64,000 nt of DNA from Bdellovibrionales bacterium (GTDB lineage: Bacteria; Bdellovibrionota; Bdellovibrionia; Bdellovibrionales; UBA1609). The notes below the pieces were generated by a model. That model saw only the letters and a list, made by a program, of their open reading frames with translations, did not search any database and was not told the DNA's origin. Where the stretch lies: the NCBI GenBank assembly GCA_027317865.1, contig DAHVQG010000004.1:32001-96000 (forward strand), given 5' to 3'. Below are positions 8,075-57,613 of the stretch, in pieces. A program made the position numbers and the translations under genes. Numbering within the stretch: the stretch's first letter is position 1; every line of letters begins with the position of its first letter.

Positions 8075-8096
8075 ACCGCTATGTCCTTAGCACATT

Positions 8097-11846: not shown

Positions 11847-11922
11847 ATTGAGCGACAACCTAGCACATTCGCGCCCTGGATGAAAGTACAGGTCAAGCTT
11901 AAGGGGCCACATTCCGATGTAA

Positions 11923-13607: not shown

Positions 13608-13700
13608 TTAGTTCATTGTAAGACTCTCCTAACAAAACCGCAATGCGGAGCATCCGTCTTCTTGATTGACGAAAGAATTGAGATAGTTACAAATTGATTT

Positions 13701-38498: not shown

Positions 38499-38666
38499 GT
38501 TTTGCCTCCCACTTGTGTGCAACGCTTTTGAATTGCAAATGCCGCTCCATGAGCCTTTGAACCGAAATTGGGGTGGGGGCGCGGAATTAATCCTCGCTCG
38601 CGGCGGGTTTTGTACGTTTAAAATAAGCTCACGCTGGTACAACCATTGCACTGTCTCGGAGCAACT

Positions 38667-39053
38667 ATGATTGATCTGGATGAGCAAAGGCGATTTCTTG
38701 AAAAACGCCGAAATGACATTTTGTCGCAAGAAAAATCCATCCGCACACAAGCGCTCGGGGAGCTTTCTCCTGAACAAACCGGCGAGATATCGGGCGCCCG
38801 TCTGCACCCCGCCGATTTGGGTTCCGACACACAAGAAATCGAAACTCTCGAAACGCTTTCAGAACGAAATATTCAAACATTACGCGATATTGACGACGCG
38901 TTTGAACGAATCGAAAGCGGCACATACGGCATTTGCGCGTCTTGCGGTAATACCATTGCCGCTGCCCGTCTTAAAATCTTACCCGAAACCCGTTTGTGCC
39001 AACAGTGTGAAATTCGATTGGAACAGTTGCCTTCGAAATCCCCGTTGGGGTAA
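38667..39053 (+). CDS. DksA/TraR C4 zinc-finger protein
   Basis: HPADLGSD, IDDAFERIESGTYGICASCG..I..ARL..LP..RLC..C. Confidence 0.9.
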   Translation: MIDLDEQRRFLEKRRNDILSQEKSIRTQALGELSPEQTGEISGARLHPADLGSDTQEIETLETLSERNIQTLRDIDDAFERIESGTYGICASCGNTIAAARLKILPETRLCQQCEIRLEQLPSKSPLG

Positions 39054-39080
39054 GAAATGCCAAACCGAAAAGGGGGGATT

Positions 39081-39779
39081 ATGAAAACATTAGTACTCGG
39101 GCTTTTACTCGCGTTAGCTTATCAGCCCTGCGCTCAAGCGCTACAGTTTCAATTAGCACCGCCGTGCGGACGACACGCGTCTGTTGGCGAAGTTTGTTCA
39201 CTGCCAATTCTTGCATTGCATCCGACGCAATTTACACTTGGGATGATCGAAGTCCGAGCCCGCGCAGCGCAATTCGAAAGAAAAAAACCGGCGAAATTCG
39301 CGAAATACATGAAAAAGCATAACGTACCGGTCGTCATCGGTCCGGACGGCGTCTTTTATATGACCGATCACCACCACTTGTCCCGCGCGCTATATGAAGA
39401 CGGCGTCCGAACAGTCAATGCGCAAGTGACACACGACTGGTCGAATTTGAACAGGGCGCAGTTTTGGTCCCGGATGGAGTCAACAAAGCAAGTTTATCTC
39501 TATGAAGATGGCCGCGGACCGCTTTCACCGAGCGAACTTCCGAATAACATCTTACAGTTAAAAAATGACTACTACCGCAGTTTAGCTTGGGCCGTGTGTT
39601 CCCAAACGAAAGCATTCAAAAAAGAAAAGGTCCTCTTTTTTAGTTTTTATTGGGCCAATTTTTTCAGAGCGCGCATACCGGATTCACTCGTTCGCAATCA
39701 TTTTGAACAGGCGGTACAGTTAGGCGCTCAATTAGCACGTTCACCAGCGGCAAAAGGAATGCCCGGCTATCGCGGCTAA
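39081..39779 (+). CDS. ParB/Srx-like (ParBc_2-type) protein with signal peptide
   Basis: MKTLVLGLLLALAYQPCAQA; LHPTQ, VPVVIGP, YMTDHHHLSRA, LKNDYYRSLAW, FYWANFFR. Confidence 0.78.
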   Translation: MKTLVLGLLLALAYQPCAQALQFQLAPPCGRHASVGEVCSLPILALHPTQFTLGMIEVRARAAQFERKKPAKFAKYMKKHNVPVVIGPDGVFYMTDHHHLSRALYEDGVRTVNAQVTHDWSNLNRAQFWSRMESTKQVYLYEDGRGPLSPSELPNNILQLKNDYYRSLAWAVCSQTKAFKKEKVLFFSFYWANFFRARIPDSLVRNHFEQAVQLGAQLARSPAAKGMPGYRG

Positions 39780-39792
39780 GATTTTCAAGCCA

Positions 39793-40878
39793 TCAGGGTT
39801 CAAAGCAAAACCAGCCACCGACGGGGAAATGGTCGGTGGCACCACTTCCGGTTACCGGGTCAAAAGCAAGCGGTTTGCCACTTGGCGAAATAAACTCGTG
39901 GTGCCGAAGCGGCCCAAAGCTCCCTTGCTGCAAATATTTTAAAAAGTTTTGCGAAACAATGATCTGATCAAAGACTTCCCAACGCTTGCCGGCTTCAAAA
40001 AAACAGGTGGCCCGCTCTTTGAGTAAGCTTTCGGCATAATCATCTATTGTTTGCTTGTTTGCGCCTGGGTGTGCGGCCTTAAAATCGGCCATCCGTTTTT
40101 TCAAATTGAATGACTCTTCCTCTAAGTTACGCAATTTCTCAGTCATGCTTAATCCAAGACCGGCTTTCATTTCCGGGCTGTCGGGTTCCGCATTGAAATC
40201 ACCCATAATGATAATATTCGCAATCGGATTTCGTGACAAAATTTGATCGGTGACTTTTTTTAAAAACCGCGCCGCTTGAAACCGCTGCAACGCCGACCAG
40301 TCACCCAGTTTTTTACTTGGCCAATGGTTTACAAAGACAATCAGCTCTTCATCGTTTGGTAACCTTAAATGATATTCGACGATGGGTCTGGTCAAAAGAC
40401 CGCCTGAAAATTCTTTGCGCCCAAACCGCTTACGTTGCCGCCATAACGGATCGTCTTCGCTCCAATAGATATGCGCAACGGGCCCCTTAAGCATTGGAAA
40501 CCGTGAAATTAGCCCCAAGTTATTGCCGCGATCGTCCGCCTGAGGAGCAACGCCGTGACTGGCAAGACCCGATTTTTTCATCAAAGGATGCCGTACAAGT
40601 TGTGTCAAAAAATCACCGTCAACTTCGACGACTGCCAATAAATCGGGCCCTTTGTTGTCGTTCATTGAAGAAACCAATTTGGCTACCGCTTCAACTTTTT
40701 TTATTTCACTCTGTTTGTTCGGAAGAAATTTCTTATCGTGAATCAATTTAAACGCGTTCATCGTCGCTAGAAGATGCCCGCAAGAATAATTTGCGGATTT
40801 CTGCCGAGTCACCCCAATCGCATATGCGGGAACAAAAAAAATCGCACCCGCAAGCAGCAGGCGTTTCAACTTAGTCAT
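39793..40878 (-). CDS. Exported endonuclease/exonuclease/phosphatase (EEP) family protein
   Basis: Signal peptide; LAVVEV, VNHWPSK, MGDFN, FDQIIVS, TDHFPV catalytic motifs; ATG 40878 overlaps the upstream stop. Confidence 0.88.
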   Translation of the reverse strand: MTKLKRLLLAGAIFFVPAYAIGVTRQKSANYSCGHLLATMNAFKLIHDKKFLPNKQSEIKKVEAVAKLVSSMNDNKGPDLLAVVEVDGDFLTQLVRHPLMKKSGLASHGVAPQADDRGNNLGLISRFPMLKGPVAHIYWSEDDPLWRQRKRFGRKEFSGGLLTRPIVEYHLRLPNDEELIVFVNHWPSKKLGDWSALQRFQAARFLKKVTDQILSRNPIANIIIMGDFNAEPDSPEMKAGLGLSMTEKLRNLEEESFNLKKRMADFKAAHPGANKQTIDDYAESLLKERATCFFEAGKRWEVFDQIIVSQNFLKYLQQGSFGPLRHHEFISPSGKPLAFDPVTGSGATDHFPVGGWFCFEP

Positions 40879-42379
40879 CGTAACCCGAAAGCAAATCATC
40901 GCAATTCAGCTCCAACTGAGCCGACATTTTTTCAAATAATTTACGCTCACCGCTATTTAACGAATTAAAAAGATATCGCCGCCCCAACGGGCTGGAGTCA
41001 ACCGCCCGCAAAAGGTTTTTAAAAAAATCACGATTATTCAGTAGCGATTGACCCTTAAATTTTTCACCTCGAAATATTCCGATCAATCGCTTGAAATTAT
41101 ATTCAGTGGCGGTGCCCCTTTCGGCCATCCCCAATAGATCCTTAAATAAATCAAGCGCTGTCATCGGGGGATAAAGGCTTTTTGAAATTCGTTTTTTCGC
41201 GACCTGCATATATATCGCCATCGAATCAGTTGAATAATCTTTACTTGAAGATGACGTTTCGTCCTTATTACGCCAGTGCGGCACTTCGCCCCAACCATCC
41301 GAAAAAGAGGAAAATAGTGTTCGCCTTTCTTTAAACAGATCGGGAGCGGGAACTTGATCTTTAGGTATAAAAGTCAACGATTCGGTTCGTTTAAGTGGAA
41401 ATTCATACCCAAGTTCCAGCGCCGCTTTCTTAACTAAATCGATAAAGGTTGGGTCTCTCACAATTTTCATCACGTCGAACATTTCGCCGAGAATAGTTTC
41501 ATGCGCGGATGGCACATCTGCCCCCGGCGTTGTGCTTACTCGGCCATCCGCCGTGCGATGAAACGGACCAAACATTTCATGCCATCCGGTGGTATATGTG
41601 AGCGATGACGTTACCTTAGGCAAATAAAACGGATGAACCGGGCCTTCGGTCGTTATGTGACTGCGCTCCGATTCTTTCAATTGTTCAATATTAAGCGATG
41701 GCCTAATCACGTTGCTTTCAGTGCCGCCGCTCATGCCTATGCCAACGAAATTAACGCGATCGTAAAGCTTCTTTAAATCGCCTCCTTGAAGCGAATAACT
41801 TTGGTAAGCGGCGCGAATCAACTGACGCGATTGACTCGTTGAACGCCAACTCGTTACATCAAAGACGACAAACGGATAATCGTCGTTCATCTTTTCGAAA
41901 CTCAGCCCATTGCTACGTAAAAAATCAAACAAAAGCTCTCTGTCGTTTTGTGACGACTCTGTTGTCGCATTATAATAGTGTGGAAAACTCGGCCCGCTGG
42001 CATCCAGGCGCCTCACGCGGTTCTGTTGACCGATTGATTGATAGAAACCATCAAGCAAATCGGTCAGAAGCGCAACGTCGCGCCCAAGTCCAAGATATGT
42101 CGCACCCGGAAAAGCTCTTTCCATTGACGCAATGATGATTGCCGCATTTTGCGGTGAAAGCGAAACACCGTTATAAAACGGATTTATTGACGGCCATGTA
42201 TTGATTCCATATTTTGCGTCCATCGCAGATACAAACTCGTTTACAGTCGGACGGTTTCTTTGCTCTAAAAGCATTTGAATTGAATCGGCCGACCTCACGT
42301 TCATGCCGGCGGCCCGGCGGCCGTTGAAAACGCCAACTGTAAAAACGCAAATAAACGCCAAGCTTATCCAATACTTCAT
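40871..42379 (-). CDS. Exported PRTase-like 'GRD' family protein, paralog 3
   Basis: Signal-like N-terminus; FPGATYLGLGRD, SIGQQNRVRRL, PFVVFD, LGYEFPLKR shared with 48785 and 53594; C-terminal NCDDLL. Confidence 0.6.
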   Translation of the reverse strand: MKYWISLAFICVFTVGVFNGRRAAGMNVRSADSIQMLLEQRNRPTVNEFVSAMDAKYGINTWPSINPFYNGVSLSPQNAAIIIASMERAFPGATYLGLGRDVALLTDLLDGFYQSIGQQNRVRRLDASGPSFPHYYNATTESSQNDRELLFDFLRSNGLSFEKMNDDYPFVVFDVTSWRSTSQSRQLIRAAYQSYSLQGGDLKKLYDRVNFVGIGMSGGTESNVIRPSLNIEQLKESERSHITTEGPVHPFYLPKVTSSLTYTTGWHEMFGPFHRTADGRVSTTPGADVPSAHETILGEMFDVMKIVRDPTFIDLVKKAALELGYEFPLKRTESLTFIPKDQVPAPDLFKERRTLFSSFSDGWGEVPHWRNKDETSSSSKDYSTDSMAIYMQVAKKRISKSLYPPMTALDLFKDLLGMAERGTATEYNFKRLIGIFRGEKFKGQSLLNNRDFFKNLLRAVDSSPLGRRYLFNSLNSGERKLFEKMSAQLELNCDDLLSGYDD

Positions 42380-44442
42380 ATACCTTCCAAATTCTCGTGA
42401 TCAATAAGCAAATCAGCGCAACTGTGATTTTCAAAAATATTTTTGTATTGTTTGTATAGCGTCTTCCGCGCATCGGGCTGCAATCGTTCGATAGCTTGCC
42501 GGAGTTGCTCGCGGTTAGGATGCAATTCCAAAAACTTTGCAAATGAAACTGCCACAAAATCCGACATACGCCGTTCATACTTCGGCGTCGGATCTTCTTG
42601 GTCGAACTGTATAAGCCTTACATATTCGCTTGGAGTACGGACATAAGCCCTCATGACCTTTTTCATGTATTCAATAAACGGGGGACCGTGGCGCACCAGC
42701 GTTTTCAGTTCGTTCAATTGGTCAAAGCCGGGATGGCTCGCCATGATTAAATCCAAATTGTCTACCACAATTTGGGCAATCTGAGGTTTATTGAGCGTTC
42801 GGACAACCATCATATTTTTCACATATGAAATAAATGTCTCAGGTGAAGTAAGCGCTTGGCTCCATTCGTAATTTGCCACAAGAGGTATCAGAAGCGCCGA
42901 ATACTTTTCTTTTCGTAAATCATTTTCATCATTGTCGAGATAGTCCTTAATATTCAAATATTCGCTTTCGTTTAACGTAGTGAAAAGATTGTACCGGCGA
43001 ATTACGTAGTCGATAAAATCCGGATCTGCATTCCGAGCAATCAGCGCCGTTAAATTTTCTCGCGAAATATTCAAAGTTTCTGGAATGAGACTTAAACTAT
43101 TCCGGTTATACACGCTGATGATTCCCGGCATAAGCACGCTAAAATCTTTATTTTGAACCGAACGGGGATTAACCTCAAAACCAACCCAAATTTCGCCCGG
43201 TTTTCGAACAGGCGTCTCAGATAAAATAATACCGGGAGGACCCCGCATTGGATTCGTTTTTTGGTCGGGCAGCAACAAGTTAGGAGCGTTGAGTTTACCC
43301 ATACGAAGACGCTCGAATGTTTCAAAGTCATAAATTTTCATATAGGCCGTTTTTATTCCAAGTTCGCCCGCTGTCGCACCCTGTACGCCGCCCAAAGAAA
43401 ACGCCGGCAATGGCTTTTGCTCCATTAACCATGCAAGCGAATCCGTATCACTGCGCGACCCAAACGTAGAAAGGTCTTTGCGCACACCCATTCTGTTTAA
43501 ATCAGCCCATGCGGCGTTTACGTCTAAGGCGTTGTTGATAAGCTTATTTGCGTTTTTTTCGATCCAGCGCAAAGCTCCGTGATATTGCGGATCTGTCTTA
43601 ATTTTTGAAAATGGTGCCGTTCGCAAGATCCTTTCAACAACTTTGAGGCTATTGCGATCGGGTTTAAGGCCATACTCAAATACTTTTATTAAAAACCTCA
43701 ATGCACTGATGACAACAGGATTGCCGGACGAAGATCGCGAAGTGGAATGATGAAGGCCGGTATTAAAATAGGTGATTTCTCCACGGGCGACGTCGTGAAA
43801 AAACAATCCTTCATCGCGGCGGAATTTTCTCAAATCTTGAATTCGTGATCGCTCACCCGTTGGGTCAGTAATCTCAATAAGGCCTGTGGATCCCGAGTCT
43901 GTATTTTGATTCTTAAAATCTTCATTGTTTAAAATGTCCGCCTTGAAACCGATGGAATACTGGAGCGGGCGCACTTCCCAAACCGAAATAGTTTTACCAC
44001 CCGTTGTCTTTTTGTAGGGGAATTTCATCTCAAGGTCATGCTGAAGTTCTTCCGCATATTGAGGTTTCGCGTCAACCACAATATCGATGTCCTGATTAAA
44101 ATGAAATATATTGACGATGCTAAAATCCAGCCGATCAGCGGAGAAGTCCCGCGAACCGAGTTCATATTGTTCCGCCCAACGGCAATAAACGGCAAAGGCC
44201 TCCGCCGCTCCACCAAAAAGATAAGCCCGTATGCCTCTTTTTTCCGCCCATTCCTTTATAAATTGAAACTCTTTTACACGGTCCAAATCAGTCTGGATTA
44301 GCTTTTCAAACTCGAGATACGATCCGTTTTGCCTCGAAATGGAAAGCATTTCGGGGGGATTTTCGTTCGCCGACGCGAACGAAGGCCCGCATATAAGTAC
44401 AAGTGCGAAAACTGGCAAAAGAAATAGATTTAAAACCTTCAT
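42376..44442 (-). CDS. Exported nucleotidyltransferase-like protein (CCA/poly(A) polymerase-like head)
   Basis: Signal peptide ...FASA; AYLFGGAA, QDIDIVVD, DFKNQNTDS, SALRFL; C-terminal SCADLL. Confidence 0.6.
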   Translation of the reverse strand: MKVLNLFLLPVFALVLICGPSFASANENPPEMLSISRQNGSYLEFEKLIQTDLDRVKEFQFIKEWAEKRGIRAYLFGGAAEAFAVYCRWAEQYELGSRDFSADRLDFSIVNIFHFNQDIDIVVDAKPQYAEELQHDLEMKFPYKKTTGGKTISVWEVRPLQYSIGFKADILNNEDFKNQNTDSGSTGLIEITDPTGERSRIQDLRKFRRDEGLFFHDVARGEITYFNTGLHHSTSRSSSGNPVVISALRFLIKVFEYGLKPDRNSLKVVERILRTAPFSKIKTDPQYHGALRWIEKNANKLINNALDVNAAWADLNRMGVRKDLSTFGSRSDTDSLAWLMEQKPLPAFSLGGVQGATAGELGIKTAYMKIYDFETFERLRMGKLNAPNLLLPDQKTNPMRGPPGIILSETPVRKPGEIWVGFEVNPRSVQNKDFSVLMPGIISVYNRNSLSLIPETLNISRENLTALIARNADPDFIDYVIRRYNLFTTLNESEYLNIKDYLDNDENDLRKEKYSALLIPLVANYEWSQALTSPETFISYVKNMMVVRTLNKPQIAQIVVDNLDLIMASHPGFDQLNELKTLVRHGPPFIEYMKKVMRAYVRTPSEYVRLIQFDQEDPTPKYERRMSDFVAVSFAKFLELHPNREQLRQAIERLQPDARKTLYKQYKNIFENHSCADLLIDHENLEGI

Positions 44443-44459
44443 CCTTTAATTCGCAACCT

Positions 44460-47400
44460 TCATTCCTCTTTTGTGTTTGCGCTAACGGGTTGACGTATCA
44501 TTTTCGATAATAGAGTTGCGCACGAAACCGGCTTTGCGTTTTTTGCGCGCGCCTGCCAATCTTCGTACGTCCGAACCGGCTGTTGTGCGCTCTTTAATTT
44601 TTCTTCAATTTTGTGTTCAAGATCCTGAGCTCGCGATTCGCTTATGTCCCCTTTACGCATCAGCTCGGCGACTATCGCGCGAACAAGCGGCCATTTTTCT
44701 TTAAGAACGGCGATCGCAATTTCATGAGCGCGCGAAATCATTTGGCTTTGCTTTTGTTCAAACAATTGCCTTTGTCGCGAAGTTGCAAGAATTGGATTGC
44801 CTTTTTTATCGACTTGAACTCCTACAAGGTCGGTATCCATTCCCCATGTGGTGAGATATTCGGTTGTTACATATCTCATCGATTTCAAATCGTTTTGCCA
44901 TCCAATGTCGGCAGGTAAGCCCGCAAGCTCTTGAGCCACTCGACCGCCCCAAGCTTTAACAAGAAATGCCATCGTCTTATCGTAGTTGAAATTCGTATCC
45001 GCCCCGGGGATCGGCTTGTAATGCGCGTAGCCTTTTGCCGTTATCATTTTGCCGGTGAAATCTTTGAGGCGAGAATAGCGGATCGTAATATAATTCAAGA
45101 TCTCATTGGTTAATTCGGGATCATTTAAAACCGCGTGGCCAGCTTCATGGTAAGCCACTGTCTCAGCGTGTTTACCTAGCGGAATTTCGACTTCGGGCGC
45201 GAATTCCGTAAAGTCTTTTTGTATATAATCGAGTTTTTTACCATCCTTGTACACTTCAACGCCGACTAGAACCTTACGCGGCTCCGATTTTTTCTGGCGG
45301 TACGGTTTATTCGTCAAATTATCTTGAACATCGAGTTTGAATACATACGAAGACAAATCGTGCCCGATGTCGCCAGTCTTCATCAGTGCGGCTCCAAGAA
45401 GCGCACCCAGCCGGTTATCAAGCGCATTTCGAACCGATCGGCCACCTGTATCCGGGGTAAAAAATGCTCGGGTAAAATTCTCAACAAATTTAGGGCCGTA
45501 TTCAACAATCAGGCCCACGTGCTGTTCTTGCAGTCTGCGAATTTGATTTTTAAGTTCCTTTTCTGTGACACCTTTCATTTCGGTGGAAAGAAGCGGTTTC
45601 GCCAGTATGACGTCGGCTAGGCGCCCGAGAAACGCTTCGGGAATCCCATTTTTCACAAGATTCGCGCGAATGATCTCTTTCTTATTATTTTCGTTGTACG
45701 CATCCATTCTCAATTTATCGGTACTGAGACTCGTGAAGAATTCCTGCAAATCGTTGCCGGTGAATTCAAAAATATGATTTCGAAGATCGTATGTTCGGCC
45801 TGTTGCTGTCGACGTCCATTTGCCTTCGTCTAAAATTTCGTAGAAGTATTGCTTAAGCAGCTCTTCTTTGCGTTTGATGTCACCCCCGCCCATGTTAGAA
45901 AATTCATCGAAAACAATCACCCCGCCGTTTGGAGTGTTCATGAGCGCTCGCTCGAATTTTCCGATTTTGTGAGAGTCGACGTACCCGGCCGGTGAATTGA
46001 ATACGTCGTTCAAACGGCCCTCGAAATTAACATTGCCGAGTGGAATGACTTCAACTCGATCGGGTGAACCAAAAAGCGCCTCCGCAATTGCGCGGCCCAA
46101 TTCCGTCTTACCGACGCCCGTTGGGCCCACAATGGCAAACGATACGGCGGTTTTTCGACCCACGTCCGCATATTTCGACAATACGGCATCCGCTGCGCTT
46201 CGAACCGCTTCGTCTTGCCCGATAATCCGCGTCTTCATTCGTTCGGGCATCGATTGGATTTTTTCTAAAATTTCTTTGTCTTGAAGAGGATTAAAAAATT
46301 TCTGCTCGGGAGCGGCAACATCCAGGCTCTCGCTGTTGGTCCCATTTGTTACGCTCAATTTCACATCGGATGAGTTTTCGTTTTTGACTAAACCGATTTT
46401 AACTGTCCCATCCCGAGGGATATCCCAGTGGGCGCGTGCCTCGCGAATGGCAACTTTAAGATACGAATCGACCTGTTTGGCAACTTGCCGGTAGCCGTCC
46501 GTAACCGAAAATCCGGTCAGCGCTAAATGTTCAACCACAGCCGGCGAGACGTCGAGATGGAGATGATATTCAAACTCCATTTCGTTTTGCAATTTTTCAG
46601 TTTCACGGCGGGCAACCTCAATCGCGCCTTCTCGTGAACCCGGGTTGGCAATCGCCCACTCGTCGATTCGGCCCAAAACTTCCGGAGGTAATTGAAATTT
46701 GTCTTCGCCATCCGTCTTTTCGCGAAACAGTGCCGCGACGTCTTTTGATTTAAAACCTGCAAGTCGGCGATCGATTTCAGCCTGACTCCACATCGTAATA
46801 TTGTCCGGAAAAACGAGCTTCGCTCCCCGATTACTCGTGAGGATAACGATGTGACGGTTTGCCCGGCGAACTTTGCCATCGCCGCATGTAATTTCACCTT
46901 TATCAAAAAACTCCATTAACCGCTTCCACACATCAGGATGCATTTTTTCGGCTTCATTAATTACGATCACGCCGCCCATCTTGCCGCGAGAGGGGTCATC
47001 AAGGTATTCGCACAAAATACCGGACCTCTTATCTGAAGTTACCGTGCCGTTCGGTGAACCCACCAAAGTATTCACCGACAAGTCGCCGGTCTGATAGGTA
47101 TTGCCGTCTATAATGAGCGCTCTTCTTTTTGAACCGAATACTTTTTCAGCCAACGTTTCGGCAATTAAAGTCTTGCCGGTACCGGTAGTCCCGATAATCG
47201 CCATGACTTGCGGGCGCCTCGGGGTTCCGATTAATAAATTACCGACGCGTTCGACAAGCTTGTGAACCAAAGATTTCTGTTCAACAACAACGGAATCGAT
47301 CTCTTTTTCTTTCTCAGCTAAATATTCTTGAAAAGCCTTACCGTCGTGAGGGTTCGCCGGCAGCCCCGTGATCTCTTTTGCGTAATCGTAGATTTCGCTA

Positions 47401-48812
47401 TCGGTAATTTTGGCTGGTGCCCCGTCGTTCAGTCTGTGTACGTGAATGGCGAGACCTTGCAAAACTTTAAACGGACCGTCCGGGCGTGCCGTATCCGGTT
47501 GCAACAGCGGCGCGACTTTAACCGCAGCTTCGATCGCGTCGTCAGTGAATTCCACATTATACTTCTTTTCGATAACGGGAACCCAACTTGCCTTCAAAAT
47601 CCTAATCGTCGTTGCTTCATCGAACTCAGTAAGACCGATTTGTTCCACACGGCGAAGAAGCGCTTCATTATCTTTGAATTTATTCTGAAACTTATCCGAA
47701 TTACTTGCGCCCAAAATGGTAATGCCGCGATCTCTGGCATCCATGTAAGGCAATAACGCTTCAATCTGCGCCTCGTTAAACGTGTGAAATTCATCCACGA
47801 ATACGATGATTGGCTTACGTTCGCCGTTGTGATCCTGAGCATATGATTGCTCATAAAAAAGAACCGCGTCAAAAAATTGTTCTACCGCTTCGGCCATCGA
47901 ATTCGGATCATTCGATTTTGCAAGCCGCGAGATCCTTGCGGGCGTAACTTGAATCATCTCCGCATTATCAAATGCCTCATTAAAAACTTCGGTATCCGGG
48001 TATAAATGTTCCACCAAGATTTGGGCTACGCGTTCGGCGGCCGCAGTTTTACCCACTCCGGGTATACCGATAAAAACCGGATTTTTGCCTTTTATCCGCA
48101 CAAGAGTGTCAAGCGCTCGCTCAGCTTCTTTGTCACGCCCCAGTGTTTCGACGAACGAGCCGTTTTCAATGCTCTTTTTCACTTCGTCGGTCATAAAATT
48201 AGTAGTCGCGGTCAGTATGATCTTCGCCGCGGCCATTTTTTCTTCACCTTCCGCTCCGGTGGAATCGCGCAAAAGTTGATCTTTAAACGACTGACCGTCT
48301 TGCGCACTTGCCGTTTGTTCCACCGGTAACGGTGTCGGATTCGAGCGAATGCGCTCTCGAATTTCTAAAAACAAGTCGTCCAATTTATTTTTAGTTTGAG
48401 CGTTGAACGCCGTAGACGCGCGAAATTTTTCGTAAATCTTGTTGAATTGTTCAACTTCAGCGACACTCCCCATCGATCCGATACCGTTAAGATACTCTGA
48501 AATGTGAAAAGAGTTCGGTTTAGGTTTCGCTACCTCGATCTTTAGTTTCGCCATTAGAAAATTTAAAACCATGCGATACGGAAAATCTTTCAGCGACGAA
48601 ATTAATTTGGATGTTTCGACGGGATCACGGCTCGTATCGACGGCTTTCATTTTGCCGATCATGAGATTATATTCTTTTTCAGACGGCGTTCGGCCCGACT
48701 TATTTAAAGACTGTGCAAATCCGCAAGCGCCGAAAAAAATTCCGGCCACAAGCGCGAAAGCGACTAAAATCTCACTTTTTGAATCTAAGATTCGTTTATA
48801 ACTTCGGCGCAT
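44460..48812 (-). CDS. Exported triple-AAA+ (ClpA/B-like) ATPase fused to FtsH-type M41 peptidase
   Basis: Walker A GIPGVGKT, GTTGTGKT, GPTGVGKT; Walker B VFVDE, VINE, VFDE; IIGQDEAV; AYHEAGH...GGRVAQEL...NDL; RBS AAGGGG upstream of the ATG. Confidence 0.85.
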   Translation of the reverse strand: MRRSYKRILDSKSEILVAFALVAGIFFGACGFAQSLNKSGRTPSEKEYNLMIGKMKAVDTSRDPVETSKLISSLKDFPYRMVLNFLMAKLKIEVAKPKPNSFHISEYLNGIGSMGSVAEVEQFNKIYEKFRASTAFNAQTKNKLDDLFLEIRERIRSNPTPLPVEQTASAQDGQSFKDQLLRDSTGAEGEEKMAAAKIILTATTNFMTDEVKKSIENGSFVETLGRDKEAERALDTLVRIKGKNPVFIGIPGVGKTAAAERVAQILVEHLYPDTEVFNEAFDNAEMIQVTPARISRLAKSNDPNSMAEAVEQFFDAVLFYEQSYAQDHNGERKPIIVFVDEFHTFNEAQIEALLPYMDARDRGITILGASNSDKFQNKFKDNEALLRRVEQIGLTEFDEATTIRILKASWVPVIEKKYNVEFTDDAIEAAVKVAPLLQPDTARPDGPFKVLQGLAIHVHRLNDGAPAKITDSEIYDYAKEITGLPANPHDGKAFQEYLAEKEKEIDSVVVEQKSLVHKLVERVGNLLIGTPRRPQVMAIIGTTGTGKTLIAETLAEKVFGSKRRALIIDGNTYQTGDLSVNTLVGSPNGTVTSDKRSGILCEYLDDPSRGKMGGVIVINEAEKMHPDVWKRLMEFFDKGEITCGDGKVRRANRHIVILTSNRGAKLVFPDNITMWSQAEIDRRLAGFKSKDVAALFREKTDGEDKFQLPPEVLGRIDEWAIANPGSREGAIEVARRETEKLQNEMEFEYHLHLDVSPAVVEHLALTGFSVTDGYRQVAKQVDSYLKVAIREARAHWDIPRDGTVKIGLVKNENSSDVKLSVTNGTNSESLDVAAPEQKFFNPLQDKEILEKIQSMPERMKTRIIGQDEAVRSAADAVLSKYADVGRKTAVSFAIVGPTGVGKTELGRAIAEALFGSPDRVEVIPLGNVNFEGRLNDVFNSPAGYVDSHKIGKFERALMNTPNGGVIVFDEFSNMGGGDIKRKEELLKQYFYEILDEGKWTSTATGRTYDLRNHIFEFTGNDLQEFFTSLSTDKLRMDAYNENNKKEIIRANLVKNGIPEAFLGRLADVILAKPLLSTEMKGVTEKELKNQIRRLQEQHVGLIVEYGPKFVENFTRAFFTPDTGGRSVRNALDNRLGALLGAALMKTGDIGHDLSSYVFKLDVQDNLTNKPYRQKKSEPRKVLVGVEVYKDGKKLDYIQKDFTEFAPEVEIPLGKHAETVAYHEAGHAVLNDPELTNEILNYITIRYSRLKDFTGKMITAKGYAHYKPIPGADTNFNYDKTMAFLVKAWGGRVAQELAGLPADIGWQNDLKSMRYVTTEYLTTWGMDTDLVGVQVDKKGNPILATSRQRQLFEQKQSQMISRAHEIAIAVLKEKWPLVRAIVAELMRKGDISESRAQDLEHKIEEKLKSAQQPVRTYEDWQARAKNAKPVSCATLLSKMIRQPVSANTKEE

Positions 48813-50401: not shown

Positions 50402-52158
50402 TCTTCAGCATCCATCGGTTCAAATTCATCTTTGGGGAATTCATGTCTGTCAGACCTTGGGTTCACCAATGATCTTTCAATCTCAACCTTCTTTTGGCTT
50501 TCTAGCTCTTCAACAACGGACGCGACCTTCTCGGCGCTATCGGCAACCAGTATGTGGCTCTTGATTTCTGGCGAAAGCGAACTGTTCGCTATAAATTTAA
50601 GTAAATACGAGTAGTACTTTGAATTTTGAATCACGACGTACGGGGGCCGCTTCGAGTATTGAATCGCCACGAGCGTCGCCGCGAGCTCGCGCATGGTTCC
50701 GTTACCGCCGGGCTCAATAATTACTAAATCACGATTGTTTACTAGCAACGGTATCCGTGAATGGTAATCAAGCGTCGGAATCGTGTGCGATTGAACTTCG
50801 CTTCTTGTATCCGTCTCGTAAGGCAGCGCTCCACGACCGACGCGGGGTATTCCAATTGAAGGTCCACCCGCATCGTAGGCCCCCATGTTTGCCGCGTACA
50901 TAACTCCACCAGCACCTCCGGTAACCACCGGAATGCCGCGGCTCCCGAACCAATATGCCGTTTGATACGTGTCGGGGGCGACTTCTTCGTCTAAACGGCT
51001 CGACCCGAAAACAGCGGCACCGCGAACGCCAGAAAGAACTCTTACACCTGAACGAGTAACGTCCACGTGCTCAAGAAGAGCAATGATTTCACCAAGACTC
51101 ATATTATTTGGCGAAATGCTAAATGCTTTTAGATTAACTGGATCTTTTACGGCCGGGAAAACCGAATACCGTACTGATTCCAAAACGCGAGTGGCGTTGA
51201 CGATTGCAGATATCGAGTTTGTGATGCCAAGCCGCCGGTAGGATATTCCAAAACCCCTTTTTTCAGATTCCAGTAGACTCGACCAATCGTGAAGGCGATT
51301 TTTTGTATTACCGTCGAGGTCGAGAACAAATCCCGCATCATTATTGAGGAGTGCGGCCATCCCTAACGTCGAGTCCGGGCTTACAATTGCCGGCAAGGCA
51401 TGTGAAACGACTTCAAGAAATGAATACGAATTATTGAAATGTAAAACAATGCCAGGACGGCCTCTTTCATTTCTTGCCCCGGCTTCGGGTAACATTGAAA
51501 TTCCGATGCCGCAGGGACCCGCCGCTCGAGCAATTATTTCCGCCGCTTTGTTGTCGGCATCGTAGATAATTGTATAGTTTTTTGCCACGAGCTGAGCGAC
51601 AAGCCGTTCGTACTTCGTGGCTTCGGTGTCTGTTGGCGCACGATCGGACGAACCAACGAGAACCGAAACCAGTTTCGAGCGCGGCAACCTGTACACTTCT
51701 AATATTTGTTTGTAGTCTTCAAAAAATCCTCTATCTTCGGGTACAGCCAACCGCTCTTTTAGAACCGGGATCAACGACAACCGGTTTTTTTCTTTTAATT
51801 CTTCGATCAACCCCTCGAGTTTTTTTATTTTAAATTTGAGGTCAGCTATCTTCTTTTTGACTTCCGCGCGTTTTTCCGGTGAACGGGCTGCTGGTGATTT
51901 TTCGGCGTATTCGAGGTAAAAACCCCAAAAATCGCTTGCATCACTTGACTCAAGTTTGTTTTTTAATGACCTAATCTCGCGTTCCATTTCGCGAAGTTTT
52001 TCTATTGCTTCGACGAGTTGCGGGCTGCGGTATTCGGCAAGTTTAAAGGCCTGGGCTTTTTCACCTTTTAAGACACGGTCGCAAGGCTGCCCGTAGGCGC
52101 TAGAAATCGCGAAGGTTGAAACCACAAAAGCGCATAAAAACAAGCGGCGCGAAATCAT
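50398..52158 (-). CDS. Exported tandem LOG/SLOG nucleotide phosphoribohydrolase
   Basis: AAVFGSS, VTGGAGGVM, SIGI, SRIPLL, PGGNGTMREL; preceding degenerate LOG copy; N-terminus SRRLFL...AYG. Confidence 0.82.
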   Translation of the reverse strand: MISRRLFLCAFVVSTFAISSAYGQPCDRVLKGEKAQAFKLAEYRSPQLVEAIEKLREMEREIRSLKNKLESSDASDFWGFYLEYAEKSPAARSPEKRAEVKKKIADLKFKIKKLEGLIEELKEKNRLSLIPVLKERLAVPEDRGFFEDYKQILEVYRLPRSKLVSVLVGSSDRAPTDTEATKYERLVAQLVAKNYTIIYDADNKAAEIIARAAGPCGIGISMLPEAGARNERGRPGIVLHFNNSYSFLEVVSHALPAIVSPDSTLGMAALLNNDAGFVLDLDGNTKNRLHDWSSLLESEKRGFGISYRRLGITNSISAIVNATRVLESVRYSVFPAVKDPVNLKAFSISPNNMSLGEIIALLEHVDVTRSGVRVLSGVRGAAVFGSSRLDEEVAPDTYQTAYWFGSRGIPVVTGGAGGVMYAANMGAYDAGGPSIGIPRVGRGALPYETDTRSEVQSHTIPTLDYHSRIPLLVNNRDLVIIEPGGNGTMRELAATLVAIQYSKRPPYVVIQNSKYYSYLLKFIANSSLSPEIKSHILVADSAEKVASVVEELESQKKVEIERSLVNPRSDRHEFPKDEFEPMDAEE

Positions 52159-53597
52159 TGAGAACCTTTCAGTATCGCCTGACAGTCGCCAGCGGATTTA
52201 TCATGTGGTTTAACAATAAGATCTTCGACAGCACGGCCGAGTTCCTCACCGATCGGGACAATGACGAGTTTGGAATTCTGTTTTACGACCGCATTTGATA
52301 CGGGATACGAATCCGTCACAACCAGTTGATCAATAGATGCACTATTGAGCGCTTTACCGCCGTCGCCCGCGAGGTGTGTAACGACCGCAATAACTTTAGT
52401 CGCCCCTGCTTTCTTCAAATAATCAGCCACGTCCGCTAATGTGCCCCCGGTTGACGTTTCATCGTCTACAATAGCGACAACTTTGCCCGCCGGGCTCGGT
52501 CCGCTGAATCCGTAAAATTTTGTTTGAGCAGTGAGTGGATCGCGCTGTTTATTGGCGACAGCAACAGGCAACTTCAGCATGTCCGCATAAAGCGTGGCAT
52601 CTTTTTGAAATCCCGTATCCGGTGAAACAATCATTTCAACATCGGCATTTCGCAAGTACGCGCACAATGTATTAAGGCCCAAAACATTAAAGCTCGGAAT
52701 ATCAAAAAAGCCCTGTGATTGCGGAGCGTGTGCCCGAGCAAATTCGATAGCCTCTGTGCCAACACTTTCAATTAAGTCGGCAATCAGACGGCCAATCACC
52801 GTTACACCTTTTTGATCCGCCTTATCCGATCGCGCCCACGGCAACGGCGTTACCCACGTTACGGCGGCTCCATCTCTTGTCATCTGCGCAACTCGCGCCA
52901 AGGCGGCAAAAAAGGTTTCACTTTTGGGGATTACGACTGGCCTCACAAAAATTATTTGCGCGCCCTTTACCGCTCCTCTCGGGAGAGAACCTGGATTATA
53001 AACCGGCAAATTCAGAACACGCCCCATATCGCGAGCAATCGAATCGTGGGAGTCTTGAAGAATAAAACTGTGTGTCAGATGATGCCTGCCGGGCCAAACA
53101 CGACGGATTCTAATGGTTCGCGGATGGTTCCCGTTTTCAACAAACTTGGTCGCACCCGCTATGCCGATAAGCGATTCCACCGGTAAGGCAAGCGAACCGT
53201 TTGCGGTCGTGACCCGTATTTTTGAAATCGAAGTATTAAGAAAAGCAACAATCTCTCGTGCACCGAGCGTTCTTGCCGTTCGAATCTTAATCAAAGCCTC
53301 CATAAACATTTGGGGCGTCATTTCATCTGGAATCAAAATCCCGACTCGTTTGCCAGTAAGATTGGTCTGCACGCGCACGAAAGTGTCGCCGTTAGAAAAC
53401 TCTTGAGTTTTTTCTTCAATCATCCGGCAGCCAGGGTGTGACGTGCAGAATCGATTAGCAGCTTCTGAAAAATTACGTACAGAGAATAGTAATACGCTTC
53501 GATTGCGGGCGCTGGCGTAACCCGAGCCGACGAGCATAAGGGTCGTCATGCTCAAAAATGCAATTTTATTTAAACCCAACCCTTTCATCGTCCTCAC
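52155..53597 (-). CDS. Exported ribose-phosphate pyrophosphokinase (PRPP synthetase)-like protein with duplicated N-domain
   Basis: FSNGD, PWARSDK, HAPQSQGFFDIP, VSPDTG, KQR, IVDDETSTGGTL; signal peptide ...YASA; C-terminal DCQAIL. Confidence 0.88.
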   Translation of the reverse strand: MRTMKGLGLNKIAFLSMTTLMLVGSGYASARNRSVLLFSVRNFSEAANRFCTSHPGCRMIEEKTQEFSNGDTFVRVQTNLTGKRVGILIPDEMTPQMFMEALIKIRTARTLGAREIVAFLNTSISKIRVTTANGSLALPVESLIGIAGATKFVENGNHPRTIRIRRVWPGRHHLTHSFILQDSHDSIARDMGRVLNLPVYNPGSLPRGAVKGAQIIFVRPVVIPKSETFFAALARVAQMTRDGAAVTWVTPLPWARSDKADQKGVTVIGRLIADLIESVGTEAIEFARAHAPQSQGFFDIPSFNVLGLNTLCAYLRNADVEMIVSPDTGFQKDATLYADMLKLPVAVANKQRDPLTAQTKFYGFSGPSPAGKVVAIVDDETSTGGTLADVADYLKKAGATKVIAVVTHLAGDGGKALNSASIDQLVVTDSYPVSNAVVKQNSKLVIVPIGEELGRAVEDLIVKPHDKSAGDCQAILKGSQ

Positions 53598-55198
53598 CCT
53601 GCAGGTTTCAAAACGTCACTACACGTGGCTTCTAACATTTTACTTAACCGCTCATATGCCTTCGATCCGAGCGGACCGGATTTATGTTCGTTATTTAAAA
53701 AATATTCCCTCTTTGAGTTCCAAACTTCTTCGAAGGTGCGGCTGTTATGGTAGAGATGCGCCAAGCCGCTTTCAAATTTCTCACGCTCGCTCACGGCCGC
53801 GCCATTAACCGTGTCTTCACTTGCAATTGGATAGTTCGCAAGTAAACGCTTGATTAGGCGGCGAAGATCGCGCGCGCTAATTTTGCCATTTTCAAATGCA
53901 TGTACCGAACCCGCTAAAAACATGAGCGCAATTTGACCCGAATTTTTGTCAGTGCGGCCGTAAACATCCGATTTCATAAGAGACAAAATCTTCATTCCGT
54001 TTTCAGTCATCGGTTCGGCATCTTCACCAACAGGGCCAAGCTCTGAAATTATATCTTTGAACGATCTCTGCGCTTCAGCTATACGCTGTTCGGCAATTTC
54101 GTCGGCCGTTAGCATTCGAATGTCCGTTCGTTCGCGCGCGCGCCCCTCTGGGAACTCATACCCCAGTTCTCTAGCCGCTTTTTGCACTTCACTATAAAAC
54201 TCTTTTGTCGAAACAATTCCTATGATGTCGTACAGACCACCTAAAATTGTTTGGCGTATTTCAACGCTGGACAGACCTCCAGGTGGAGCGAAAACGCGCC
54301 CGTCTTGCATGCGCTGAAGTTGAAGGAATGGGCCGTGCCACTCTGAGCTGTAAGCAAGTTGGGCGCCATCGATTTTCAAAATTCGATCAGGACCGGTTGG
54401 CTGAGCATTCGATGTTTTAATGTACTTTTCGATTTTTTTTACAGTTTCATAATTTTGCGATCCAATTATCGGGTAGTTCGAATTTTTTATGTCAATGACA
54501 TTGACCTTCATCAAAAGGTTCGTGAGCGGCTTTTGTGTGCCTTGGTACACACTATAAAACGCACCAATATATTGGCGGCTTTGGCTCGTAGGGCTGTAAC
54601 TGGTCGCATCGATAATAATAAACGGCGGGTCTTGATCCACAGACTGCAGATGAAGTCCGTTAGTCGCCAAAAAATCGACCAAAATATCGGGCGTGCTGCC
54701 AACCAAAGATTGCCCGCTTGCATTGAGCCGCACGACGCGATGGTTTTGCCCGTGAGCTCGGTAAAAAGCGTCGACCATATCGGCAATCAATGCGGAGTCG
54801 CGACCCAAAAACGCATACGTTCCGCCCGGGTAGGCCGCTTCAAGACTAGCAATAATTTTTGGCCCGTCAGCCTTGGTTACAGCCACGGCTTGCGAACGTT
54901 CACCGGCATTTCTAAAGGGATTTTTTCTTGGCCACGGCGTTAACGCATTTTCGATTTCGGCAATGGTCGGGCGAGATTGCATGTTAAGCAATTCATTGAT
55001 TTTTTCATCACGAGCCTTTTTAGCTAATTGCTCCTGAACTTGCGGTTCGCCCCCATCGCTCAAATTAGTTGTCGTTATAGTCCCAAAGGCTCCGTGCCAG
55101 GACGTCCGGCTATTCGCCGCACGAACCTTCGCCGACACCGAAGCTGCTACAATTAAACCGGCGATCAACATTGATAACGCCTTACCCATTTTCCCCAC
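53594..55198 (-). CDS. Exported PRTase-like 'GRD' family protein, paralog 1
   Basis: Signal peptide ...SVSA; YPGGTYAFLGRDS, RVVRLNAS, PFIIID, LGYEFP; C-terminal TCSDVL. Confidence 0.6.
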   Translation of the reverse strand: MGKMGKALSMLIAGLIVAASVSAKVRAANSRTSWHGAFGTITTTNLSDGGEPQVQEQLAKKARDEKINELLNMQSRPTIAEIENALTPWPRKNPFRNAGERSQAVAVTKADGPKIIASLEAAYPGGTYAFLGRDSALIADMVDAFYRAHGQNHRVVRLNASGQSLVGSTPDILVDFLATNGLHLQSVDQDPPFIIIDATSYSPTSQSRQYIGAFYSVYQGTQKPLTNLLMKVNVIDIKNSNYPIIGSQNYETVKKIEKYIKTSNAQPTGPDRILKIDGAQLAYSSEWHGPFLQLQRMQDGRVFAPPGGLSSVEIRQTILGGLYDIIGIVSTKEFYSEVQKAARELGYEFPEGRARERTDIRMLTADEIAEQRIAEAQRSFKDIISELGPVGEDAEPMTENGMKILSLMKSDVYGRTDKNSGQIALMFLAGSVHAFENGKISARDLRRLIKRLLANYPIASEDTVNGAAVSEREKFESGLAHLYHNSRTFEEVWNSKREYFLNNEHKSGPLGSKAYERLSKMLEATCSDVLKPAG

Positions 55199-55201
55199 TG
55201 G

Positions 55202-57613
55202 TTATTCCCTCAACCTTTCAGTTTTAACGCTTTTCGCGCCGTTATCTAAATATTTCGTATTTATATCACTTAACGCATTTCGAATGTCGTCCGCCGAATT
55301 CACCAAATATATCCTCGACAAAACCGATGCTGGTAACTTCGATTCTTTAAGATAGTTGGCAAGCGATCCGTAGAAATCGTTGGCCACAAAAATGATGCTT
55401 TGGCTCTTATTGAGGCCCGATGCGAAATTGACAAAAGCTGTCGCCAGTTCTTGAAGCGTCCCCTTACCGCCCGGCATGACCACGACAACGTTGTTCATAT
55501 AGAGCAACAACGGGATACGCGTTCGATAGTCAGTCGTTGATAAGGTCAGATTATGGACATCTGTCGCTGCCGATTTTTCACGCCATAGACTGCCACTCTC
55601 AAGCGGAATACCGATCGAAATGCCACCCGAGTTTATGGCGGCATCGTTGGCAATTCTCATAAACCCGTCCGCTCCACCAGTCGCAATGGCCAAACCGCTT
55701 TGCGCGATGGTTTTCGAGATGCTGTAAACCATCGAATCATATTTTGACTCTCGGGTACTTGAACCGAAAACGACCGCGCCCCCGGGAGTTTTTTGGCGTA
55801 ACGCCTGAACGGCTTCGGTCATTTCACGCTGATAATTCGAAATTTGTGAAAGTTGGTGGCGATCTAATTTCGCGATAAATTGGCCGTCATTTAATCGAAC
55901 CGGTTCCGTTTCTGCGAAGACAATTCCCGGCGTATCGCTATATTTTTCATAATCACTATATTTGCTATATTTTGATTTTTTACCGCGAAGACTTTCAATC
56001 GCTTCGTTGTTTGTTTTAAATTTTTGGATGCTAAGAAAGTGGTAATTGTCTCGAATCCCAAACGAGTAACCGTCAATGTTGTCAGTCCATTTGCGTAAGC
56101 CACCTAAGATGGGAAAATCAGAATTGTTGATAGTGCCGTCAATGTCCTTTTGAAGAAGCAATCCAAACCCGGTGACCGAGTCAGCCGTCATGATTCGATT
56201 GTTCGAATATGCAAACGCCTTCATTCTTAGGTACGGATTGGGTATCGATAAAATCTGGCTATTGTGGAGCATTGTTTCCGAACCGGCGGTCACTTCGCTC
56301 GTAATACCGACTCCACGGTCACCGACGGCTTCTGCGATAAGCGGCGCTGTCGGCACGTCGGCATCAAAAAAAACTATATAACCGTTCTTCGCCGCCGATC
56401 GAGCCAGCTCCACCGCTTCATTGGCATCGGCGTTGTTTGCGGCGCCCGTCAGAAGTGTCAGAGTTTTTGAAGTTCCGTCGCAGATAGCTTGCACCCAACG
56501 ATAATTCAGCATTTCACGGAGGTAGCCGCTATTTGCGTTTTCTTGTTTCAGTGCCGATATAAAATTGGCTTGAAGTTCGGCCGTCTGCTTTAACTCTCGT
56601 TCACGTTCCGCAATAAGCCGTTTTCGCTCGTTTTCTCTTTGTTTGGCGGCTATCTCTTCGTAATTTTCTTGAAGTTCGCTCAATGCGACTCCCTTCGGAT
56701 AATCGCTCTCTTTTAGAAATTTGAAATTCCAGTCAGCGGTACGCACGAGACGCGGCTTACCGTCATCGTCGAAAAATGAAACCACGTAGTCAGAGTTAAT
56801 TAATGAATCCCTTGCCCGGCCATAAACCAATGCGATCCGTTTCGACTTCGTCTTTATGCCTGAAACGGATGAGCCCGTAACCGGATCACGAAAGAACGAA
56901 TTTGAACTCAATACAGCAGCAGCCACTGCATGTTCCGGCTTTAATCCCTCGGTTTTGCGAATCACGGTGTTGATTGCCAACAACTCCTTCGTCGGAGATT
57001 CAACTTTTGTCGACGGAATCGGCACTTCCGCGGCAGCTAGCGATTCTGTTTTATTTTCTAAAGCATTGAGTTTCGGCGATTCTCGTCGTAACAATACCGA
57101 CGCCGCGACCAACGTCGAGTGGCCTTTGATTCGTGAAAATTCCGTTCCGTGTCTTTTAAAAGCAGAATCGTTGTAAAACTCTAATTCTTCTGGTTCAACC
57201 CAAGCGATTCGACGGCCATGAGTTGTCCATCCAGAAATTGCGACGGATGTTCCGCCTAACTTAAAATCATTGTTTTTAACCCCATAGACATAAATATCGT
57301 TCAACGGCGAAAGCACGACGTTACCGCTTAAGGCAATTGGCGAGGTCAATTTGGCGAGAGCGATCGGTTTCGTTTCGGCACTAACCTCAGCTATGTCCGT
57401 TGTGAGTGCTTTGATCGCTTTTTTAAAAGTCGGCTCTGTGGTATTTGTCCCACGCAGAATCAATTCGCAAACTGTAGACTTCTTTTCACTTTTCCCATTT
57501 TTCTTTGTGGCCGCGTGGGCCGAATTAAAGCTGAACAATATCAACAATGAAACAAGCAAAAGGGCTTGAGAATTACAGTCGTGAGACTTGAGCTTTAATG
57601 GCGCCCCCTTCAT
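55202..57613 (-). CDS. Exported tandem LOG/SLOG protein with extra N-terminal region
   Basis: Signal peptide ...SAHA; AVVFGSS, ATGGADGFM, SIGI, TRIPLL, PGGKGTLQEL; degenerate first LOG copy; RBS-like AAGGTGAGGGG upstream. Confidence 0.82.
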   Translation of the reverse strand: MKGAPLKLKSHDCNSQALLLVSLLILFSFNSAHAATKKNGKSEKKSTVCELILRGTNTTEPTFKKAIKALTTDIAEVSAETKPIALAKLTSPIALSGNVVLSPLNDIYVYGVKNNDFKLGGTSVAISGWTTHGRRIAWVEPEELEFYNDSAFKRHGTEFSRIKGHSTLVAASVLLRRESPKLNALENKTESLAAAEVPIPSTKVESPTKELLAINTVIRKTEGLKPEHAVAAAVLSSNSFFRDPVTGSSVSGIKTKSKRIALVYGRARDSLINSDYVVSFFDDDGKPRLVRTADWNFKFLKESDYPKGVALSELQENYEEIAAKQRENERKRLIAERERELKQTAELQANFISALKQENANSGYLREMLNYRWVQAICDGTSKTLTLLTGAANNADANEAVELARSAAKNGYIVFFDADVPTAPLIAEAVGDRGVGITSEVTAGSETMLHNSQILSIPNPYLRMKAFAYSNNRIMTADSVTGFGLLLQKDIDGTINNSDFPILGGLRKWTDNIDGYSFGIRDNYHFLSIQKFKTNNEAIESLRGKKSKYSKYSDYEKYSDTPGIVFAETEPVRLNDGQFIAKLDRHQLSQISNYQREMTEAVQALRQKTPGGAVVFGSSTRESKYDSMVYSISKTIAQSGLAIATGGADGFMRIANDAAINSGGISIGIPLESGSLWREKSAATDVHNLTLSTTDYRTRIPLLLYMNNVVVVMPGGKGTLQELATAFVNFASGLNKSQSIIFVANDFYGSLANYLKESKLPASVLSRIYLVNSADDIRNALSDINTKYLDNGAKSVKTERLRE

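Follow-up and report, generated by a model that had tools for sequence, protein, structure and literature searches.

The window analysed here, a 64,000-nucleotide stretch of a contig from a Bdellovibrionales bacterium (DAHVQG010000004.1, positions 32,001 to 96,000), carries an operon of nine closely packed open reading frames (ORF1 to ORF9) on the minus strand between 39793 and 57613, the products of which share a short cysteine-centred tag near one end of the chain. The junctions of the operon comprise a 3-base gap, a 17-base gap, four 4-base overlaps and overlaps of 28 and 29 bases. All nine proteins start with a basic n-region and a hydrophobic core, i.e. a Sec-type signal peptide. Judging from its domains, the operon appears to encode a Sec-exported set of nucleotide-handling enzymes, together with one protein without assignment (ORF7) and a triple-AAA+/M41 protease (ORF6). 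The nucleotide-handling set consists of two SLOG/LOG-like proteins (ORF1 and ORF4, with the domain at the C-terminal end; PF18306, PF03641), one PRPP-synthetase-like protein (ORF3; TIGR01251 match of 152 bits, cut-off 113), one endonuclease/exonuclease/phosphatase (EEP) phosphoesterase (ORF9) and three paralogs of one unnamed family (ORF2, ORF5 and ORF8, 25-34% identity), hereafter family A.

The strict form of the tag, C-x-x-[LIV]-[LI], has exactly one match in each of the nine proteins. Six of the tags lie 7-19 residues from the C-terminus (ORF2, 3, 5, 6, 7 and 8) and three lie past the signal peptide at residues 49, 26 and 40 from the N-terminus (ORF1, 4 and 9, respectively). The original prediction, a terminal tag on all nine operon proteins, was made from the sequence alone; each of the nine strings it quoted is present in the translations, and the coordinates it attached to them are the low ends of the ORFs, so that the three N-terminal tags are placed at the opposite end of their genes from where they lie. 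In matching terminal zones, the strict motif occurs in one of the other 42 ORFs of the window (a cytoplasmic PilT-like ORF), and the number of motifs per cysteine is 9/25 in the operon against 8/160 in the background. The observation is thus confirmed within the 64-kb window. In shuffled sequence (2000 shuffles for each protein) the terminal-zone motif appeared at frequencies of 0.002-0.0205 per protein; the product of the nine frequencies, about 4e-20, is to be read as an order of magnitude only, because the motif and the zones were defined after the data had been seen. The codons of the tag vary synonymously among the nine genes and the conservation is therefore at the protein level, not that of a DNA repeat; these synonymous differences, together with N-terminal tags that lie far from the junctions, rule out a DNA-level repeat or a junction artefact. 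The tag is missing from further window proteins that have a signal peptide or belong to the membrane, among them those encoded at 3705 and 25697, the DUF4340 protein and a beta-lactamase-like protein. The claim that other exported proteins of the window lack it holds for the first three named and probably fails for a ParB-like nuclease, which has YQPCAQAL directly after its signal-peptide core, resembles ORF4 in this respect (GQPCDRVL) and is probably a tenth tagged protein that fits the wider consensus given below.

Family A allowed us to follow the tag among relatives. A profile search of 1.84 billion proteins returned 344 family A representatives (50% clusters) at E <= 0.001, and the tag was counted in the best 150 of these 344. 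The last cysteine lies 4-25 residues from the C-terminus in 134 of the 150, and in 132 of these 134 the residue at +4 is hydrophobic (L 90, F 17, I 10, Y 7, M 4, V 4). Position +3 shows a preference for A/L/V/I and positions +1 and +2 are mostly E/A/D/R; the most frequent residues are S30, D14, G12 and T10 at -1, and P21, G17, A16 and K14 at -3 (n = 134). The relatives of family A thus give a wider consensus, C-x-x-x-[L/F/I/Y] with A/L/V/I at +3, and the tag as a whole can be written [S/D/G/T]-C-x-x-[A/L/V/I]-[L/F/I/Y]; it stands either 4-25 residues before the C-terminus or from a few to some 15 residues past the signal-peptide cleavage site. In 84 of the 134 tagged representatives the tag cysteine is the sole cysteine beyond residue 35. 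Cysteine makes up 4.1% of the tail window (136/3300 residues) compared with 0.10% of the bodies (80/76,664), and a hydrophobic residue follows at +4 for just 27 of the 80 body cysteines. Protein lengths run from 285 to 1925 residues; an LGYEF-like marker of the end of the catalytic domain is present in 57 of 132 tagged representatives, and in these 57 the tag cysteine lies 5 to 764 residues beyond it. A signal peptide was recognised by a crude rule in 144 of the 150. P0001 is a 99%-identical relative of ORF2, and a distant one, P0002 (33% identical), ends C-G-K-Y-L-E-K; a homolog search with family A gave only two proteins, a 99% copy and P0002. Judged by these counts, the tag cysteine and the hydrophobic residue at +4 are under selection.

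A genome scan with a profile from a 20-sequence family A alignment yielded two loci, L001 from a metagenome-assembled genome (MAG) named "uncultured delta proteobacterium" and L002 from a MAG named "Oligoflexia bacterium"; a scan with the three window paralogs gave 573 pattern matches, of which none was confirmed. The L001 locus holds a homologous cluster in which five families carry the tag, each at the same end as in the window (Table 1). In the AAA+ pair (ORF6 and its L001 counterpart) the tag cysteines fall in different alignment columns, and the tag has therefore been kept by selection, not through inheritance of one fixed position. L001 also encodes a second SLOG paralog; it lacks both the signal peptide and the tag, which links the tag to export. 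Homolog searches with ORF4, alone and as a six-row alignment, gave only a 98% copy and P0152 (35% identical), and P0152 has C-E-K-T-L directly after its N-terminal signal peptide. So far as exported proteins of the window and L001 show, the tag is confined to this gene cluster. Taken together, these comparisons of sequences indicate that the tag is real, conserved, modular, export-linked and cluster-specific, and that in the enzymes it lies outside the catalytic domains. The proposal of a position-flexible tag outside the catalytic domain stands, and the confinement to one cluster and the tagless L002 weigh against a general second-step export signal. The folds that share the tag are indeed unrelated, in several families, and number six rather than nine, as ORF2, ORF5 and ORF8 are paralogs and ORF1 and ORF4 share the SLOG domain. 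An alpha/beta hydrolase with a signal peptide is also encoded inside the L001 cluster (12228-13220, minus strand), with CGVYL at residue 53. This could be another tagged family, or else the motif could belong to the fold itself.

No match to family A was found in Pfam, NCBIfam or the PDB. Its profile found nothing below E 0.08 among PDB sequences, an ESM Atlas search gave no lead (best score 0.81) and a Pfam search of 18 long family A fusions gave no domain at E <= 1e-5. Five residues are invariant across 114 sequences (P124, G132, D197, Q206 and W287 in P0001 numbering). An AlphaFold2 (AF2) model of P0001 built from these 114 sequences reached a mean predicted local distance difference test score (pLDDT) of 87.9, superseding an earlier model from 4 sequences (57.5). 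In the newer model Cys526 opens a short helix (526-530) that follows a helix at 508-523. A Foldseek search of the model against the PDB returned nothing at E <= 0.001 (best E 9.4e-3, TM <= 0.19). A predicted complex of ORF6 residues 36-200 with P0001 residues 440-534 scored 0.04 against a mark of 0.32, which is no evidence either way.

Table 1. The operon, its tags, the neighbouring ParB-like gene and the tagged proteins of L001.
Feature	Position	Strand	Description
ORF1, 803 aa	55202..57613	-	Signal peptide, N-terminal tag (Cys49), middle without assignment, C-terminal SLOG/LOG-like domain
Tag CELIL, ORF1	57455..57469	-	N-terminal, ~15 residues past likely signal-peptide cleavage site
ORF2, 534 aa	53594..55198	-	Signal peptide, family A (no Pfam/NCBIfam), single Cys = tag
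Tag CSDVL, ORF2	53609..53623	-	C-terminal, 8 residues from end
ORF3, 480 aa	52155..53597	-	Signal peptide, ribose-phosphate diphosphokinase (PRPP synthetase)-like
Tag CQAIL, ORF3	52170..52184	-	C-terminal, 8 residues from end
ORF4, 586 aa	50398..52158	-	Signal peptide, N-terminal tag (Cys26), helical region, SLOG/LOG-like domain
Tag CDRVL, ORF4	52069..52083	-	N-terminal, ~3 residues past likely cleavage site
ORF5, 538 aa	48785..50401	-	Signal peptide, family A paralog, single Cys = tag
Tag CAEVI, ORF5	48797..48811	-	C-terminal, 7 residues from end; within the 28-base ORF5/ORF6 overlap
ORF6, 1450 aa	44460..48812	-	Signal peptide, three Clp/Hsp100-like AAA+ modules, C-terminal M41 (FtsH-type) peptidase domain
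Tag CATLL, ORF6	44508..44522	-	C-terminal, 19 residues from end
ORF7, 688 aa	42376..44442	-	Signal peptide, no family match; homolog in L001
Tag CADLL, ORF7	42406..42420	-	C-terminal, 13 residues from end
ORF8, 502 aa	40871..42379	-	Signal peptide, family A paralog; tag Cys = sole Cys outside signal peptide
Tag CDDLL, ORF8	40889..40903	-	C-terminal, 9 residues from end
ORF9, 368 aa	39793..40899	-	Signal peptide, N-terminal tag (Cys40), endonuclease/exonuclease/phosphatase domain
Tag CGHLL, ORF9	40768..40782	-	N-terminal, after signal peptide
ParB-like nuclease (PF08857)	39057..39779	+	Convergent with ORF9; signal peptide, candidate tag 39129-39143
L001 ORF7-like			CARAI, C-terminal
L001 AAA+/M41			CGSHV (weak), C-terminal
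L001 family A, 1			CHNII, C-terminal
L001 family A, 2			CATLI, C-terminal
L001 family A, 3			CAEGV (weak), C-terminal
L001 PRPP-synthetase-like			CSDQI, C-terminal
L001 SLOG protein			CAWSI, residue 44, N-terminal

The tag probably marks the operon proteins for a shared handling step. As to the nature of this step, the reading that we favour, tentatively and with somewhat less than even confidence, is that of a modular, thiol-dependent docking tag that would form an intermolecular covalent link to a common partner. We propose that the tag occupies the terminus left free in each protein and that its cysteine opens a short amphipathic helix. After export, this helix, with its leucine, would dock on one common partner, to which the thiol would be joined covalently, by a disulfide or by some other thiol-dependent bond. 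In this way the proteins encoded in the cluster would be gathered or tethered on a carrier, on a scaffold or on each other, and could then be retained, packaged or delivered jointly, with possible release by reduction. In AB-type toxins, the catalytic chain is tied to its carrier through a lone cysteine near the chain end and comes free when this bond is reduced in the target cell. This interchain disulfide is our working analogy, with the difference that no carrier chain was found here and that the same tag occurs on at least six enzyme families. For exported proteins, even-number or exclusion patterns of cysteines are reported (PMC2823432); a lone cysteine runs contrary to such patterns and, together with the nearly cysteine-free bodies, therefore suggests an intermolecular role for the thiol.

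Several findings weigh against a docking tag. The evidence for it consists of sequence statistics throughout, and no gene for a partner, a carrier or a thiol-oxidoreductase was found in the window or L001. The signal peptides were recognised by eye and by a crude hydrophobicity rule, without a trained predictor, and the cluster specificity applies to 64 kb and two 21-kb loci. A loose form of the motif is common, being carried in wide terminal zones by 9 of the 42 background ORFs, and two of the L001 tags, CGSHV and CAEGV, are weak. The confidence of the P0001 model is lower in the tail (means of 77 and 62 for the last two ten-residue blocks), and the position of the cysteine at the helix start comes from this one model. 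Untagged relatives also occur. In L002, two family A genes and two SLOG genes lie adjacent at 7593-15309 and encode proteins with signal peptides and no tags, one of the family A proteins being wholly free of cysteine. No terminal cysteine is present in 16 of the 150 family A representatives, and 11 of these 16 are wholly cysteine-free. The untagged family A members and the untagged L002 cluster indicate that the enzymes as such can do without the tag. On a FastTree tree of 149 catalytic domains, the 18 rows without the full tag require at least 10 changes, 6 of which are forced by well-supported branches, and the untagged rows are clustered on the tree (0 of 500 shuffles as low). The tag is therefore widespread and has been lost repeatedly. 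As a further observation on L002, its cluster is followed by a DegP-like protease and a papain-family protease.

Terminal tags that gather the enzymes of one gene cluster are known from other systems. The encapsulation peptides of microcompartments and the cargo-loading peptides of encapsulins are short, helical terminal tags that bring the enzymes of one cluster together on one partner. The tag described here is like them in that it may stand at either terminus, lies outside the catalytic domain and is common to unrelated enzymes of a single cluster. However, microcompartment and encapsulin tags are cytoplasmic, have their shell protein encoded nearby and are not known to have an invariant cysteine, whereas all the tagged proteins here have signal peptides, and no bacterial microcompartment (BMC) or encapsulin shell family was found among the window ORFs. 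Keyword searches of the literature found no description of the motif, which cannot prove that none exists. As far as its sequence goes, the tag seems to match none of the known sorting signals with which it was compared.

The main reading of the original prediction, a second-step secretion signal by which an outer-membrane translocator would send the enzymes beyond the periplasm, for instance into prey, is in our view an unlikely explanation. Since ATP, on which both AAA+ ATPases and a PRPP-synthetase-like enzyme depend, is not expected in the periplasm, the cytoplasm of another cell is a plausible final site. Moreover, the tag is found only on proteins with signal peptides, and the only related loci found, those of the delta proteobacterium and Oligoflexia MAGs, come from a group that includes bacterial predators (PMC8067016). 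Against this, other exported proteins in the window and L001 have no tag, so that it is not a general export signal, and L002 has related exported proteins without it. Within the cluster there is no gene for a secretin, a translocator or a sortase-like protein, the window as a whole showed none for a translocator, a carrier or lipid transfer, and pilT/pilC at 61220-63990 are ordinary type IV pilus genes. A picture that combines thiol docking with delivery, in which a thiol-based sorting tag at either terminus would, in Oligoflexia/Bdellovibrionota-like bacteria, reducibly hitch Sec-exported enzymes of cytoplasmic type to a carrier that leaves the periplasm and brings them into a target cell, there to be freed by reduction, is speculative and we give it only limited credence.

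The operon encodes its own AAA+/M41 protease, and the tag might be a recognition tag or degron for ORF6, which would engage substrates from either terminus; we consider this improbable. Short recognition tags at either terminus are typical of AAA+ protease substrates, and the ssrA-type degrons of AAA+ proteases are short terminal tags that act in the cytoplasm. The present tag resembles them in being short, portable and found at either end, with an AAA+/FtsH-like protease encoded in the same operon. The HEAGH motif of the M41 domain of ORF6 is intact, and both tagged clusters, in the window and L001, encode an AAA+/M41 protein, whereas no such gene was found within the 21 kb of the untagged L002. 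This co-occurrence, however, rests on three loci, two tagged and one untagged. The known AAA+ degrons are cytoplasmic and are not known to have an invariant cysteine, a residue that a degron would leave unexplained here, and the protease itself carries both a signal peptide and the tag.

Lipidation was among the options raised by the original prediction, and an anchoring of the enzymes to the membrane or surface through a lipidated or otherwise S-modified cysteine has been proposed for the MYXO-CTERM family. The MYXO-CTERM type of signal is, like the tag, a short signature with an invariant cysteine on Sec-exported proteins of many unrelated families, and covalent modification is presumed to take place at this cysteine. 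An invariant cysteine is likewise present in 9 of 9 operon proteins and in 134 of 150 family A representatives, and in some long family A proteins it is followed by a basic amphipathic stretch at the chain end. The MYXO-CTERM signal differs from the tag in being tripartite (motif, transmembrane helix and arginine-rich end), strictly C-terminal and cleaved by a CPBP intramembrane protease. None of 132 family A tails has 12 or more consecutive hydrophobic residues after the tag; the tails are instead rich in G, K, E, A and S, and those of the window are hydrophilic. At least two arginines among the last six residues occur in 7 of the 132 tails and in none of the six C-terminal window tails. The position is not strictly C-terminal either, the tag being N-terminal in ORF1, ORF4, ORF9, the L001 SLOG protein and P0152. 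No NCBIfam sorting-domain model matched any of the nine operon proteins at E <= 0.01, and a Pfam search found no CPBP/Rce1-like family among the 51 window ORFs. The three N-terminal cases are reminiscent of a lipoprotein lipobox in having an invariant cysteine near the signal peptide, but the tag cysteine is set apart from it, 3-15 residues past the likely cleavage site, with polar residues before it, and the other six tags are C-terminal. The lipobox pattern [LVI][ASTVI][GAS]C was not found at these sites, the N-terminal tags of the window being preceded by TV, QP and YS. A CaaX box, in which the cysteine stands exactly four residues from the C-terminus with two aliphatic residues next to it, also fits poorly, as 4-25 residues follow the tag cysteine (mode 7, mostly 5-12), E/A/D/R prevail at +1 and +2, and the last cysteine lies three residues from the end in only 1 of the 150 family A representatives. 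Motif context, tail composition, position and the absent model matches rule out identity with MYXO-CTERM-type signals, lipoboxes and CaaX boxes. Lipidation is a poor fit to a cysteine with polar surroundings, no lipobox and no hydrophobic segment beside it, and we regard any such membrane or surface anchoring as doubtful.

The cysteine could also act as a redox switch that toggles each enzyme without a shared partner, being in the oxidised state in the periplasm and becoming reduced where the enzyme acts. A lone cysteine at a helix start in cysteine-depleted exported proteins would suit such a switch. Yet the tag lies outside the catalytic domains, at the widely varying distance from them already described for family A, it is difficult to see how a single mechanism would serve six unrelated folds, and the conserved leucine at +4 suggests a docking surface, which makes the switch quite improbable. 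Finally, chance, a purely structural role or a side effect of gene overlaps or of ribosome-binding sites at the junctions is scarcely credible: two tags do lie in or beside gene overlaps (ORF5/ORF6 and ORF8/ORF9) and the motif was defined after the fact, but the low shuffle frequencies extend over nine proteins, the codons differ synonymously, the N-terminal tags are remote from the junctions, and the tag is kept in 132 of the 150 family A representatives and in L001.

If a docking tag with a single essential cysteine does exist, it could be altered by mutation, transferred to reporter proteins and put to use as bait in the search for the partner, and a scan for the motif could list the whole tagged cargo set of a genome. 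It would offer a direct handle on the route by which folded, ATP-dependent enzymes might travel beyond their own periplasm in predatory or deltaproteobacteria-like bacteria. The tag also unites a large uncharacterised group, family A, often fused to further unnamed domains, whose members would belong together functionally. Even if it were only a docking or turnover signal, a conserved lone cysteine in otherwise cysteine-free exported proteins is unusual and easily tested.

Some features of the operon deserve mention in their own right. Each family A gene adjoins an N-tagged gene (ORF1/ORF2, ORF4/ORF5 and ORF8/ORF9). A pairing of N-tagged with C-tagged proteins was considered and dropped, as the counts are unequal (3-4 N-terminal against 6 C-terminal tags in the window, 1-2 against 6 in L001). 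In the overlaps at 48785-48812 (ORF5/ORF6, 28 bases) and 40871-40899 (ORF8/ORF9, 29 bases), two tags are dual-coded with the start of the next gene; the true start of ORF9 may be an inner methionine 7 codons downstream. ORF6, an apparently exported ATP-dependent machine, is odd in itself. Residues 613-660 of ORF7 show weak similarity to Erv/ALR sulfhydryl oxidases among PDB sequences (E 0.09-0.47), which we treated as chance, there being no CxxC in the matching stretch. PADLOC returned only weak, domain-level matches to SLOG, PRTase and AAA+ models, and scans for promoters and terminators gave no signal above shuffles.

The remainder of the window is ordinary chromosome, with purB, purM, der, rnc, miaB, mnmA, tpiA, pgk, gap and secG, and further genes for an ABC transporter with DUF4340, greB and pilR/S/C/T. 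Beyond the ParB-like gene, a putative gene at 37836-38834 (minus strand) encodes 332 residues with 9 cysteines and no family match. In keeping with a deltaproteobacteria-like origin of the window, the ORF at 21563-22489 (plus strand) contains an AgmX/PglI C-terminal domain, which is named after myxobacterial proteins (NF033768, 40.2 bits, cut-off 40).

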